This document shows, in pieces, positions 39,958-58,530 of a DNA stretch of 64,000 bases. The notes beneath the pieces are model-generated. The model did no database searches and was not told where the DNA came from. It was given only the letters and a program-made list of their open reading frames with translations. The number at the start of each line of letters is the position of its first letter. Positions within the stretch are counted from its first letter, which is position 1. The translations under genes and the position numbers were made by a program. The stretch comes from Escherichia coli (GTDB taxonomy: Bacteria; Pseudomonadota; Gammaproteobacteria; Enterobacterales; Enterobacteriaceae), in the NCBI RefSeq assembly GCF_003334335.1, contig NZ_QOWQ01000023.1; one strand, 5' to 3'.

Positions 39958-40592
39958 TGTTTTGCCGCCTTGATGAGAGTGGTTTTCACCGGAAAATAAT
40001 CCGCGCCGAGATACTGTTCCGACTGGCGAATTTGCCCTTCGCTGTCGATCCAATAGCGGTTATGCCAGCGCGCCTGGTCGGTGGAGACTTCTTCGTCCAG
40101 CACGCGAACCGGGGTTTCATCGCTGCCGACTTTGACGGTATCGGTGCCATCCCATTTGAAGACTGAGCGTGCGGTGGCGTAGCGTACCTGCTGGTACTCG
40201 GTCCAGCCCATCGTGCGCGTCCAGCTTGCGCCATCAACGATTTGTGCGGGTTTAATCAGCGGGTCGGCAGCAAGGTTATTCACTTCAATCAGGTTGTCGC
40301 CGCCGAGCAGAGTCTTCACCAGACGGCCATGTTGGGTAACGAGAGTAGCCTGATCCTGAGTGACCCATTTTTGTTGTCCGTCTTCAGCGAAGGCCAGCAC
40401 CACAAATAACTGCGGCCCGCCATTAAGCTGCATGTACTGGCTGGCGTAGGGCATATTTTGAATATCATCATCCGTCAGCTGTACGCCTGGCGTGCCGAAC
40501 AGACTGTCCCACAGTGAATTGCCCAGCTCTTTAGTCGTGGCTGAACAGGCCTGTAATAACAGGCAGATAAGAATGAGTGCAGGTCGCTTCAC
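39954..40592 (-). CDS. yjbF: YjbF lipoprotein (about 212 aa)
   Basis: GTG start at rc(40590..40592); lipobox LLLQAC. Confidence 0.8.
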   Translation of the reverse strand: MKRPALILICLLLQACSATTKELGNSLWDSLFGTPGVQLTDDDIQNMPYASQYMQLNGGPQLFVVLAFAEDGQQKWVTQDQATLVTQHGRLVKTLLGGDNLIEVNNLAADPLIKPAQIVDGASWTRTMGWTEYQQVRYATARSVFKWDGTDTVKVGSDETPVRVLDEEVSTDQARWHNRYWIDSEGQIRQSEQYLGADYFPVKTTLIKAAKQ

Positions 40593-40705
40593 GACTCTTC
40601 TCCAGAGGGGCAGAATAACCACACCGGAGTGTGGTTATGGTTAATCCCTTCATACTTCTAGCCACAGATGCAATGACTCGAATTATTTTGGGGATACATA
40701 CTTTA

Positions 40706-40948
40706 TTACTGGGTACTGGTGGTCGTGGTTGTGGTGGTCCCGGTATTAGAACCATCACCGCCACCGGTTGCCGCAAGCGCGACACCCACCGCCGAGCTTA
40801 CGGTGCTGACGCTGGTCGCGGAGGAACTCCCCGCCGAAACCGACGTTGCTGCCGACCCTGCCGCTTCGCCCACCTGTACAGGTGCAGCCCACGCAGAAGT
40901 CGCCGCAAGCGCAGATATGGCAAAAATGCCATACAGAACTTTTTTCAT
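40706..40948 (-). CDS. yjbE: YjbE, small secreted Ala/Ser/Thr-rich protein (80 aa)
   Basis: [21 protein letters not shown] signal, then low-complexity A/S/G/T sequence ending in a TTTTTTT run. Confidence 0.75.
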
Positions 40949-41255
40949 AACAATTTCCCTTCATTGAATGAATGGAGATTTACCCAAAAACATTTCGGGC
41001 GGGATCGAGTATACACAACTAAAGCATGCGAATTACGGCGCGGGGAATTAGCGATGGCGTTTTAGGATAATTGGAATGAATATCAAATATAAGTTTCAAC
41101 TTATATTTAAATAACAATAAAAATCATAAACTTAAAATAAAAACAAAAGCAATTAATCTGCGTATTTTCCGAAATAAACAACGATTAAAAATCTATTTTA
41201 GGATTAACCTCATGGTATGATTTCCGTTAAATCACAGACAAGGGGATTTATCTGA

Positions 41256-41283
41256 TAAAAAAATGCCGACATAACGTCGGCAT
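41256..41283 (-). terminator. intrinsic terminator distal to pgi (after the 3'-UTR REPs)
   Basis: ATGCCGAC-ATAAC-GTCGGCAT stem followed on minus strand by TTTTTTT. Confidence 0.7.
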
Positions 41284-41356
41284 TGTTATTAAGGTTATTT
41301 AATCAATCGTGCTATGTATTAATTGCCGAATACGATGTACATATCGGCATCGACCT

Positions 41357-41433
41357 GTAGGCCTGATAAGACGCGACCGCGTCGCATCAGGCATCGGTTG
41401 CCGGATGCGGCGTGAACGCCTTATCCGGCCTAC
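41357..41433. repeat. REP pair (BIME) immediately 3' of pgi
   Basis: GTAGGCCTGATAAGACGCGACCGCGTCGCATCAGGC and GCCGGATGCGGCGTGAACGCCTTATCCGGCCTAC. Confidence 0.9.
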
Positions 41434-41446
41434 ATATCGACGATGA

Positions 41447-43096
41447 TTAACCGCGCCACGCTTTATAGCGGTTAATCAGACCATTGGTCGAGCTATCGTG
41501 GCTGCTGATTTCTTTATCATCTTTCAGCTCTGGCAGAATACGGTTCGCCAGCTGTTTACCCAGTTCCACGCCCCACTGGTCGAAGGTGAAGATGTTCAGG
41601 ATCACGCCCTGAGTAAAGATTTTGTGCTCATACAGCGCAATCAACGCACCCAGGCTGAACGGAGTGATTTCACGCAGCAGGATGGAGTTGGTCGGGCGGT
41701 TACCTTCGAATACTTTGAACGGCACCACGTAGTCAAGCGTTGCCGGATCTTTACCCTGATCACGATATTCCTGCTCAACCACTTCGCGGGATTTACCAAA
41801 CGCCAGCGCTTCGGTCTGGGCGAAGAAGTTAGACAGCAGTTTCTGGTGATGATCAGAGAGCGGGTTATGGGTGATAGCCGGAGCGATGAAATCGCACGGT
41901 ACCATTTTGGTTCCCTGGTGGATCAGCTGGTAGAACGCGTGCTGACCGTTAGTGCCTGGTTCACCCCAGATAATCGGGCCAGTCTGGTAATCCACAACGT
42001 TACCGTTACGGTCAACATACTTACCGTTGGACTCCATATTGCCCTGCTGGAAGTACGCCGCGAAACGGTGCATATACTGGTCATACGGCAGAATCGCTTC
42101 AGTTTCCGCACCAAAGAAATTGTTGTACCAGATGCCAATCAGCGCCAGCAGTACAGGCAGGTTTTTCTCGGCAGGCGTGGTGGAGAAATGCTTGTCCATC
42201 GCGTGTGCGCCGGAAAGCAGTTCAACGAAGTTATCAAAGCCGATGGAGAGAACAATCGACAGGCCAATCGCTGACCACAAAGAGTAACGGCCGCCAACCC
42301 AGTCCCAGAACTCGAACATGTTGGCAGTATCAATACCAAACTCGCCAACGGCTTTGGCATTGGTGGAAAGCGCCGCAAAGTGTTTTGCAACGTGTTTTTC
42401 ATCACCTGCCGCTTTCAGGAACCAGTCACGCGCGCTATGGGCGTTGGTCATAGTTTCCTGAGTGGTGAAGGTTTTAGATGCTACCAGGAACAGCGTGGTT
42501 TCCGGGTTTACTTTTTTCAGCACTTCCGCGATGTGAGTCCCATCGACGTTAGAAACAAAGTGCATGTTCAGGTGGTTTTTGTACGGACGCAGAGCTTCGG
42601 TCACCATGTATGGGCCGAGGTCAGAACCGCCGATCCCGATGTTCACTACGTCAGTGATTGCTTTGCCGGTATAACCTTTCCACTCACCGGAAATAATCGC
42701 TTCTGAGAAGGTTTTCATCTTCTCCAGCACCGCGTTGACTTCCGGCATTACGTCTTTGCCATCAACCAAAATCGGGGTATTGCTACGGTTACGCAGCGCT
42801 ACGTGCAGCACGGCGCGGTTTTCAGTGCGGTTGATCTTCTCGCCAGAGAACATCGACTTAATCGCGCCCGCCAGATCGCACTCTTTCGCCAGATCCTGTA
42901 ATTTCGCCAGCGTCTCTTCAGTGATGCGGTTTTTGGAGTAATCCACCAGCATCTGATCGTCGAAGGTTGCGGAGAACTTAGAAAAACGATCGCCGTCTTT
43001 AGCAAAAAGATCGGCGATCGTAACGTCTTTCATTTCATCGAAGTGTTTCTGTAGTGCCTGCCAGGCAGCGGTCTGCGTTGGATTGATGTTTTTCAT
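41447..43096 (-). CDS. pgi: glucose-6-phosphate isomerase Pgi (549 aa)
   Basis: [42 protein letters not shown]...; ATG at rc(43094..43096). Confidence 0.97.
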
Positions 43097-43279
43097 TAGC
43101 AATACTCTTCTGATTTTGAGAATTGTGACTTTGGAAGATTGTAGCGCCAGTCACAGAAAAATGTGATGGTTTTAGTGCCGTTAGCGTAATGTTGAGTGTA
43201 AACCCTTAGCGCAGTGAAGCATTTATTAGCTGAACTACTGACCGCCAGGAGTGGATGAAAAATCCGCATGACCCCATCG

Positions 43280-43314
43280 TTGACAACCGCCCCGCTCACC
43301 CTTTATTTATAAAT
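43280..43314 (+). promoter_or_regulatory. candidate sigma70 promoter of lysC
   Basis: TTGACA at 43280..43285 and TATAAAT-like element near 43308..43314; spacing not ideal. Confidence 0.45.
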
Positions 43315-43339
43315 GTACTACCTGCGCTAGCGCAGGCCA

Positions 43340-43620
43340 GAAGAGGCGCGTTGCCCAAGTAACGGTGTTGGAGGAGCCAGTCCTGTGATAACACCTGAGG
43401 GGGTGCATCGCCGAGGTGATTGAACGGCTGGCCACGTTCATCATCGGCTACAGGGGCTGAATCCCCTGGGTTGTCACCAGAAGCGTTCGCAGTCGGGCGT
43501 TTCGCAAGTGGTGGAGCACTTCTGGGTGAAAATAGTAGCGAAGTATCGCTCTGCGCCCACCCGTCTTCCGCTCTTCCCTTGTGCCAAGGCTGAAAATGGA
43601 TCCCCTGACACGAGGTAGTT
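43340..43620 (+). promoter_or_regulatory. lysine riboswitch (L-box) and expression platform in the lysC 5' leader
   Basis: Long structured leader with conserved AGAGGCGC...GGAGGAGCCAG...GAGGGGG...GGTGGAGCAC elements ending at the lysC RBS. Confidence 0.85.
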
Positions 43621-44970
43621 ATGTCTGAAATTGTTGTCTCCAAATTTGGCGGTACCAGCGTAGCTGATTTTGACGCCATGAACCGCAGCGCTGATATTGT
43701 GCTTTCTGATGCCAACGTGCGTTTAGTTGTCCTCTCGGCTTCTGCTGGTATCACTAATCTGCTGGTCGCTTTAGCTGAAGGACTGGAACCTGGCGAGCGA
43801 TTCGAAAAACTCGACGCTATCCGCAACATCCAGTTTGCCATTCTGGAACGTCTGCGTTACCCGAACGTTATCCGTGAAGAGATTGAACGTCTGCTGGAGA
43901 ACATTACTGTTCTGGCAGAAGCGGCGGCGCTGGCAACGTCTCCGGCGCTGACAGATGAGCTGGTCAGCCACGGCGAGCTGATGTCGACCCTGCTGTTTGT
44001 TGAGATCCTGCGCGAACGCGATGTTCAGGCACAGTGGTTTGATGTACGTAAAGTGATGCGTACCAACGACCGATTTGGTCGTGCAGAGCCAGATATAGCC
44101 GCGCTGGCGGAACTGGCCGCGCTGCAGCTGCTCCCACGTCTCAATGAAGGCTTAGTGATCACCCAGGGATTTATCGGTAGCGAAAATAAAGGTCGTACAA
44201 CGACGCTTGGCCGTGGAGGCAGCGATTATACGGCAGCCTTGCTGGCGGAGGCTTTACACGCATCTCGTGTTGATATCTGGACCGACGTCCCGGGCATCTA
44301 CACCACCGATCCACGCGTAGTTTCCGCAGCAAAACGCATTGATGAAATCGCGTTTGCCGAAGCGGCAGAGATGGCAACTTTTGGTGCAAAAGTACTGCAT
44401 CCGGCAACGTTGCTACCCGCAGTACGCAGCGATATCCCGGTCTTTGTCGGCTCCAGCAAAGACCCACGCGCAGGTGGTACGCTGGTGTGCAATAAAACTG
44501 AAAATCCGCCGCTGTTCCGCGCTCTGGCGCTTCGTCGCAATCAGACTCTGCTCACTTTGCACAGCCTGAATATGCTGCATTCTCGCGGTTTCCTCGCGGA
44601 AGTTTTCGGCATCCTCGCGCGGCATAATATTTCGGTAGACTTAATCACCACGTCAGAAGTGAGCGTGGCATTAACCCTTGATACCACCGGTTCAACCTCC
44701 ACTGGCGATACGTTGCTGACGCAATCTCTGCTGATGGAGCTTTCCGCACTGTGTCGGGTGGAGGTGGAAGAAGGTCTGGCGCTGGTCGCGTTGATTGGCA
44801 ATGACCTGTCAAAAGCCTGCGGCGTTGGCAAAGAGGTATTCGGCGTACTGGAACCGTTCAACATTCGCATGATTTGTTATGGCGCATCCAGCCATAACCT
44901 GTGCTTCCTGGTGCCCGGCGAAGATGCCGAGCAGGTGGTGCAAAAACTGCATAGTAATTTGTTTGAGTAA
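43621..44970 (+). CDS. lysC: lysine-sensitive aspartokinase III LysC (449 aa)
   Basis: MSEIVVSKFGGTSVADFDAMNRSADIVLSDANVRLVVLSASAGITNLLVALAEG... Confidence 0.97.
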   Translation: MSEIVVSKFGGTSVADFDAMNRSADIVLSDANVRLVVLSASAGITNLLVALAEGLEPGERFEKLDAIRNIQFAILERLRYPNVIREEIERLLENITVLAEAAALATSPALTDELVSHGELMSTLLFVEILRERDVQAQWFDVRKVMRTNDRFGRAEPDIAALAELAALQLLPRLNEGLVITQGFIGSENKGRTTTLGRGGSDYTAALLAEALHASRVDIWTDVPGIYTTDPRVVSAAKRIDEIAFAEAAEMATFGAKVLHPATLLPAVRSDIPVFVGSSKDPRAGGTLVCNKTENPPLFRALALRRNQTLLTLHSLNMLHSRGFLAEVFGILARHNISVDLITTSEVSVALTLDTTGSTSTGDTLLTQSLLMELSALCRVEVEEGLALVALIGNDLSKACGVGKEVFGVLEPFNIRMICYGASSHNLCFLVPGEDAEQVVQKLHSNLFE

Positions 44971-58283: not shown

Positions 58284-58530
58284 ATTGCCGGATGCGGCGT
58301 AAACGCCTTATCCAGCCTACGTTCGGCAACGGTTGTAGGCATGATAAGACGCGCAAGCGTCGCATCAGGCATCGTGCACCGATTGCCGGATGCGGCGTAA
58401 ATGCCTTATCCGGCCTACGTTCGGCAACGGCTGTAGGCATGATAAGACGCGCAAGCGTCGCATCAGGCATCGTGCACCGATTGCCGGATGCGGCGTGAAC
58501 GCCTTATCCGGCCTACAGTCAGCAACGGTT
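58284..58530. repeat. BIME array: about 2.5 tandem copies of a 98-bp unit of two REP palindromes, between aceA and aceK
   Basis: Unit starts at 58284, 58382, 58480 (ATTGCCGGATGCGGCGTAAACGCCTTATCC...GTAGGCATGATAAGACGCGCAAGCGTCGCATCAGGCATCGTGCACCG); copies near-identical. Confidence 0.9.

Follow-up and report, generated by a model that had tools for sequence, protein, structure and literature searches.

Several roles have been attached to the REP palindromes of Escherichia coli. In outline, REP hairpins transcribed beyond a coding region are reported to stabilise the message at malE-malF and gdhA (Newbury et al. 1987; Merino et al. 1987), and REPs are reported to lower translation when fewer than 16 nt separate them from a stop codon (Liang et al. 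2015). Attenuation of transcription is known for some BIMEs, and REP325 has been described as a terminator and a stabiliser at the same time, the stabilised message being the upstream yjdM transcript (2026 preprint). A nucleoid-condensing role was proposed for the REP-derived naRNA4 and was then not reproduced (2026 preprint). It is common in E. coli for a 3' untranslated region to carry REPs ahead of an intrinsic terminator; in one survey, 13% of the 3' ends formed by intrinsic terminators were tied to annotated REPs, and it is already documented that the location of REPs varies between strains. With respect to pgi, my literature search found no paper tying this gene specifically to its REPs, nor any published data on how their presence or absence affects pgi mRNA half-life or Pgi output. 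In this study I show that the terminator of pgi is ancestral, that the REPs reside in a derived and polymorphic insertion ahead of it, and that E. coli carries natural variants with zero, one or two REPs at this place.

The DNA analysed is a stretch of 64,000 nucleotides of E. coli (contig NZ_QOWQ01000023.1), referred to below as the window. Its gene order around the locus, lysC (plus strand), pgi (minus strand, 43096..41447) and yjbE (minus strand, 40948..40706), is the same as in E. coli K-12. The pgi product is a glucose-6-phosphate isomerase of 549 amino acids, and the gene is named pgi in all matching E. coli genomes. The features on the pgi strand are the following.

43167..43138, minus strand: promoter-like hexamers ATCACA-18-TACAAT ahead of pgi, from the promoter scan
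43133, minus strand: mapped pgi transcription start, equal to K-12 4233721, from SMRT-Cappable-seq
41447..43096, minus strand: pgi coding sequence, 549 codons and a TAA stop at 41449-41447, from the open reading frame list and its translation
41400..41433, minus strand: REP1, a Y-type unit, with GTAG at 41433-41430 and a hairpin at 41429..41400, aligning with the first hairpin of naRNA4
41357..41392, minus strand: REP2, an inverted Z2-type unit, with a hairpin at 41392..41361 and CTAC at 41360-41357, aligning with the second hairpin of naRNA4
41324..41349, minus strand: weak third hairpin, in the tail of the insertion described below, -11.2 kcal/mol, z = -2.7, foot GCCGA...UCGGC
41257..41284, minus strand: pgi intrinsic terminator, 9-bp stem, 5-nt loop and U7 at 41263..41257, with mapped transcript ends at 41259 and 41257

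Read along the minus strand, the pgi TAA is thus followed by a 13-nt spacer, REP1, a 7-nt linker, REP2, an AT-rich stretch of 72 nt and the terminator, and the entire 3' untranslated region of 221 nt folds at -88 kcal/mol (z = -6.6). The preliminary description of this DNA had placed the stop codon, the REP pair (41357..41433) and the hairpin with its U7 tract in this arrangement, and all of these positions were right, as can be read directly from the sequence. One weak hairpin (41349..41324) is present in the 72-nt AT-rich stretch; its foot is REP-like or terminator-like, it coincides with the direct-repeat families D1-D3 and the inverted repeat I8, and it is possibly a decayed copy. Elsewhere in the window, a lysine riboswitch (43333..43529, plus strand, 99.5 bits) is found upstream of lysC, and a 5S rRNA gene (63795..63910, minus strand) lies close to the window end. 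In strain Ec-042-T5-ESBL (locus L002, 669-671) the final pgi codon reads GAT versus GGT, which changes the last residue (G549D).

The two palindromes have what is expected of REPs: they are imperfect palindromes of about 35 nt with GTAG or CTAC feet, they belong to a dispersed family, and they form an inverted Y/Z2 pair. The hairpin of REP1 folds at -20.9 kcal/mol (z = -4.1) and that of REP2 at -21.5 kcal/mol (z = -4.3). The units are mutually inverted across a 7-nt linker, and jointly they could fold into a single extended hairpin (-49 kcal/mol, z = -8.4). Matches to the REP core consensus GCCKGATGCGRCG number 16 in the window where 0.57 would be expected, and two of them, both exact, are in the pgi REPs, at 41380-41392 (minus strand) and 41400-41412 (plus strand). 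The REP part of the region matches a median of at least 38 places per E. coli genome. The Rfam model naRNA4 (RF02564), which describes a Y/Z2 REP doublet, scores 79.5 bits on the pair, with a gathering score of 59.5. The pgi element is therefore a BIME-2-like, REPIN-like Y/Z2 REP doublet in a 3' untranslated region. A BIME-1 with an IHF site can be rejected, as the linker between the units measures only 7 nt.

Four further Y/Z2 doublets in the window, all on the minus strand, exceed the naRNA4 gathering score (27460-27530, 31689-31759, 58338-58415 and 58436-58513), and the two near 58.4 kb are arranged in tandem. Since the model matches five places in the window, a match means that a REP doublet is present and points to no particular gene. 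I therefore also discarded the idea of naRNA4 as a specific gene, the function proposed for it not having been reproduced.

The terminator stem, AAUGCCGAC / GUCGGCAUU (41284..41262), folds at -13.7 kcal/mol (z = -4.2) and contains five GC pairs among its nine, and it was returned as the best terminator-like site in a scan of positions 40500-43700. The hairpin and the U tract overlap by 2 nt, because the first two U can pair with the AA at the foot of the stem. From the pgi start to the U tract, the window agrees with E. coli K-12 MG1655 at 1876 of 1877 positions and the alignment is free of indels, so that K-12 coordinates, and with them published transcript maps, transfer exactly to the window. 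In the SMRT-Cappable-seq data (Yan et al. 2018, Supplementary Data 1) a transcript covering b4025 alone runs from 4233721 to 4235597, and the latter position corresponds to window position 41257, the final U of the tract. In M9, 110 reads begin at the start site, 39 reach the end and none pass it, and in rich medium these numbers are 108, 52 and 0, respectively. Of the 110 M9 reads that begin at the start site, about 70 end short of the terminator, at places that are not in the table, and some of them may stop at the REPs. Term-seq in M63 glucose (Adams et al. 2021, Supplementary file 1) lists a plus-strand 3' end at 4235595 with 1163 reads, labelled 'orphan', which is window position 41259, the fifth U.

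As the reads run from the pgi start to the last U, the pgi mRNA includes the REPs, and the hairpin with U7, which is an efficient terminator, sets its end. The proposal of the preliminary description, that the REPs are transcribed into the 3' end of the pgi message, is thereby borne out by full-length reads spanning the start site to 41257 and by the Term-seq end at 41259. The 3'-end mapping that it had suggested as a check is available in these published K-12 data, with ends at the U tract and zero reads passing beyond it, and the ends between the stop codon and the first REP that would have contradicted it are absent from both curated lists. Neither SMRT-Cappable-seq nor the three-condition Term-seq lists contain any 3' end at K-12 4235400-4235499, the section occupied by the REPs, although reads inside the repeat may have been dropped as multi-mapping. 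Further downstream, Adams and co-workers (2021) list a region of Rho-dependent termination with a Rho score of 2.8 at K-12 4235753 (plus strand), near window position 41101 (minus strand). It is situated 158 nt past the pgi terminator, in the AT-rich DNA upstream of yjbE.

The REP doublet is only part of a longer segment that distinguishes this allele from others.

41303..41446, minus strand: derived insertion of 144 nt between the pgi stop and the terminator, with both REPs and a unique tail of 54 nt, delimited by alignment with short alleles and with E. albertii

In about one third of the complete E. coli genomes the stop codon is followed by 19 nt and the same hairpin, with no REPs, as was seen directly in the sequence of such short alleles. 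A stop codon, 14-30 nt, a hairpin and a T run, again with no REPs, are also observed in E. albertii and in seven to eight other enterobacterial genera sampled; the relatives with this short form are E. albertii, Superficieibacter, Enterobacter cloacae, Pseudocitrobacter, Kluyvera, Mangrovibacter, Siccibacter and Escherichia sp. ESNIH1. Across genera, six of the nine pairs of the terminator stem are changed on both sides and 99% of the cells remain paired, a statistic that is inflated, since I chose the hairpins at the orthologous position for their complementarity. TTAAATAACC, the sequence at the right junction of the insertion, is identical to what follows GGTTAA in E. albertii. The conserved terminator together with the REP-less relatives indicates that the terminator is ancestral and that the REPs came with the 144-nt insertion, which, on the evidence of these alignments, is derived and polymorphic. 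The opposite direction, in which the short allele arose by precise excision from the long one, is not favoured, as E. albertii and seven other genera have the short form; it is also disfavoured by the three substitutions that set the E. coli short alleles apart from the junction retained in the long one.

The ends of the insertion form an imperfect inverted repeat of 20 nt (I3, 41431-41450 and 41299-41318). They could be read as inverted repeats proper (19/21, with 2 gaps) or could alternatively reflect a duplication of the 3' end of pgi (18/25). The tail is single-copy and was found in 3607 of 5426 complete E. coli genomes; it was considered as a repeated or mobile sequence in its own right, and this was rejected, as genomes carrying it have one copy.

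Among the E. coli alleles, approximately 1819 genomes have no REP, approximately 2680 have the doublet 13 nt from the stop, and 931 have 13-16 extra nucleotides between the pgi stop and REP1, resulting in a spacing of 26-29 nt. The natural variants of pgi thus comprise zero, one or two REPs and spacings from the stop codon of 13, 26 or 29 nt. The extra 13-16 nt hold a REP-like fragment, GCCTGATGCC (L004, 675-703; L087, 125-150; L086, 336-361). Strain EC31 combines the longer spacing with a deletion of REP2 between two CGATGCC repeats, leaving one REP. The terminator varies as well: in some E. coli alleles, with or without REPs, the U tract is broken (UUGUUUU versus UUUUUUU; seen in L002, L004 and L087), and in strain R32 the terminator loop also differs. 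Since the broken tract occurs in both REP-containing and REP-less alleles, it marks a terminator haplotype to which the insertion is not strictly linked.

Outside E. coli, an independent REP pair separates pgi from the orthologous terminator in Citrobacter werkmanii (L009, 2140-2260). The 5' arm of its first REP, GCCTGATGACGC, provides the pgi stop codon TGA, and the last residue of the protein is changed from G to A. A different insert occupies the slot between pgi and the terminator in Citrobacter sp. FP75. In strain 13C1065T (L005, 892-1476) an IS1 is located in the pgi-yjbE spacer, about 190 nt past the pgi terminator. The E. albertii NBRC 107761 contig (L006) ends 121 nt after the pgi stop, just beyond the terminator, and there may be a repeat or an assembly break downstream of this contig end. 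The presence/absence polymorphism in E. coli and the independent pair in C. werkmanii are indirect evidence, read from the alignments, which would be consistent with REP mobility at pgi by way of a REP-associated tyrosine transposase.

I estimate at about 85% the probability of the following reading: the Y/Z2 doublet arrived in a 144-nt insertion placed before the pre-existing pgi terminator, it is transcribed, and any effect it exerts is modulatory. Polymerase starting at the pgi promoter reads through the REPs and halts, essentially completely, at the hairpin with U7, with the consequence that every full-length pgi mRNA of the K-12 type carries the highly structured REP segment before the terminator hairpin. 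The doublet itself may be a mobile repeat that is tolerated in a 'safe' position between stop codon and terminator. Once the terminator hairpin is breached, the structure of the REP RNA could present a further obstacle to 3'-to-5' exonucleases, and as the REPs begin 12-13 nt past the stop, they may slightly hinder terminating ribosomes. That an effect of the REPs would be modulatory and not essential follows from the many E. coli strains, and all the sampled relatives, that lack the insertion.

Alternatively, the doublet could be a working stabiliser, which is how the preliminary description read it, at which PNPase and RNase II stall after the terminator hairpin has been removed with the assistance of poly(A), so that the functional life of the pgi mRNA would be longer. 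I regard this as possible, with the odds leaning clearly against it. The REPs do lie inside the transcript, according to the full-length reads, they are predicted to fold very stably (the doublet at -49 kcal/mol, within the strongly folded 3' untranslated region), and malE-malF, gdhA and, more recently, yjdM with REP325 are precedents of REP-dependent stabilisation. However, a genome-wide comparison has shown no difference in half-life for terminal REPs, and the 3' end of pgi is already guarded by the terminator hairpin. The curated Term-seq lists also have no 3' ends at the base of the REPs, where stalled exonucleases would be expected, even if this argument is weak in view of the multi-mapping reads that may be discarded. 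Finally, the REPs are missing from roughly a third of the E. coli genomes and from the sampled relatives.

A second alternative concerns the stop codon. The helix of the doublet could stall the terminating ribosome 12-13 nt past the stop, leading to cleavage of the mRNA, recruitment of tmRNA and a lower output of Pgi, in which case alleles with a spacing of 26-29 nt or with no REP would escape. This would agree with the effect that Liang and co-workers reported for REPs close to stop codons, as GTAG follows the pgi stop after 13 nt and the REP1:REP2 helix has its first pair 12 nt past it; the pgi stop codon is itself base-paired in the fold of minimum free energy, and the 931 genomes with 13-16 extra nucleotides would provide the escaping class. 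However, if REP1 is folded alone, its stem begins only 17 nt after the stop, which is beyond the reported limit, and pgi is an abundant housekeeping gene for which no tagging data were found in the literature. I therefore consider such a brake unlikely.

A still less probable suggestion, which I would put low, is that the doublet attenuates transcription, partly via Rho, and that the downstream hairpin catches only the remainder. Besides the known attenuating BIMEs and the double role of REP325, it would account for the observation that only 39 of 110 (M9) and 52 of 108 (rich medium) start-site reads reach the mapped end. However, the short reads may be incomplete cDNAs, the SMRT-Cappable-seq and Term-seq lists hold no termination site at the REPs, and the Rho-dependent region that is listed lies 158 nt past the terminator and away from the REPs.

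On the opposite strand, the pgi hairpin is part of a match to an Rfam family.

41145..41294, plus strand: match to Rfam STnc430 (RF02053), 79 bits with a gathering score of 47, model positions 1-162, ending in the pgi terminator hairpin

On this account, STnc430 could be a genuine small RNA that starts at about 41145 on the plus strand and converges on pgi, the hairpin serving both as a bidirectional terminator. Full-length matches to RF02053 above the gathering score are present in the window and at eight other loci, transcription from a promoter-like site at 41111..41138 (plus strand) would begin close to 41145, and on the plus strand an A run precedes the stem and a U-rich tail follows it. 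However, that site lies in AT-rich DNA, and promoter-like sites in the scan were no more numerous than in shuffled sequence. The terminator scan makes no plus-strand call at the hairpin, and no plus-strand 3' end is listed in the three, admittedly limited, Term-seq conditions. In the source table of STnc430 the candidate is a prior prediction only, with 0 reads in the control and Hfq libraries and with no Northern size. The consensus fold of ten homologues retains just the terminator hairpin and a 3-bp helix, and in these homologues the U tract in the sense of pgi is nearly invariant, whereas the plus-strand tail varies. The conserved blocks could equally be explained as regulatory sites upstream of yjbE. 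With 0 reads, no 3' end on the plus strand and only the hairpin structurally conserved, a convergent small RNA is very doubtful, and the RF02053 match is probably not a real RNA gene; the family probably represents the pgi terminator read backwards together with conserved sequence upstream of yjbE.

In the same intergenic region, the yjbE leader (40949..41018, minus strand; also L007-L019) is strongly conserved over ten loci from about nine genera, with two from Citrobacter. Its first block is the invariant TTGTGTATACTCGA, in which TATACT resembles a -10 box. The second element is a hairpin, GCCYGA...UYRGGY, with one pair changed on both sides, and the third is an invariant hairpin, UCCAUUCAU-UCA-AUGAAGGGA, which includes the yjbE ribosome-binding site. 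The leader has no match in Rfam, and a position for the yjbE promoter was not found in the literature searched.

Returning to the inserted doublet with its supposed modulatory effect, the alleles form a series (no REP; doublet at 13 nt; doublet or single REP at 26-29 nt) that could conceivably tune the output of Pgi by way of ribosome stalling, mRNA stability or both. I would call this improbable; if true, the split between glycolysis and the pentose-phosphate pathway would shift among E. coli lineages with protein and promoter unchanged. In any case, the pgi locus is a clean natural test case, with the same gene and terminator combined with zero, one or two REPs and three spacings from the stop, and these alleles could give rise to an experimental setup in which the roles of stabiliser, translational brake and attenuator are separated in a gene of central metabolism.

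Compared with described systems, the pgi arrangement consists of a standard REP doublet and a standard intrinsic terminator, an arrangement that is already known and whose transcript end had already been mapped. It resembles the E. coli REP/BIME elements, and the unit of REP325 in particular, in having two inverted palindromes of about 35 nt, one Y and one Z2, with GTAG and CTAC feet, in its extragenic position at the 3' end of a gene and in its high copy number. However, REP325 comprises six doublets, whereas pgi has a single one, with a 7-nt linker, 6 nt shorter than the naRNA4 model and followed by a separate terminator. The terminator shares with other intrinsic (Rho-independent) terminators its GC-rich 9-bp stem, 5-nt loop, U7 and in vivo ends in the U tract, and nothing in it is unusual; the A run upstream lends it a bidirectional look, but the tail in the reverse direction is weaker and not conserved. 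STnc430, a candidate from the pgi/yjbE intergenic region of Salmonella, agrees with the window match in intergenic region, strand relation and full model length; however, that family is itself a computational prediction, and its conserved structure is only the pgi terminator reversed. With the REPs treated by Liang, Rudd and Deutscher (2015), which are reported to lower translation from within 15 nt of the stop, the pgi REP at 13 nt has its position in common, but the distance depends on the fold, being 12 nt for the doublet helix and 17 nt for the REP1 stem, so that pgi is a borderline case. Like the stabilisers of malE-malF and gdhA, the pgi doublet forms REP hairpins that are transcribed past a coding region and might block 3'-to-5' exonucleases. 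At malE-malF, however, the REPs lie between cistrons and set the protected end, whereas in pgi the mapped 3' end is defined by the terminator hairpin 72 nt downstream.
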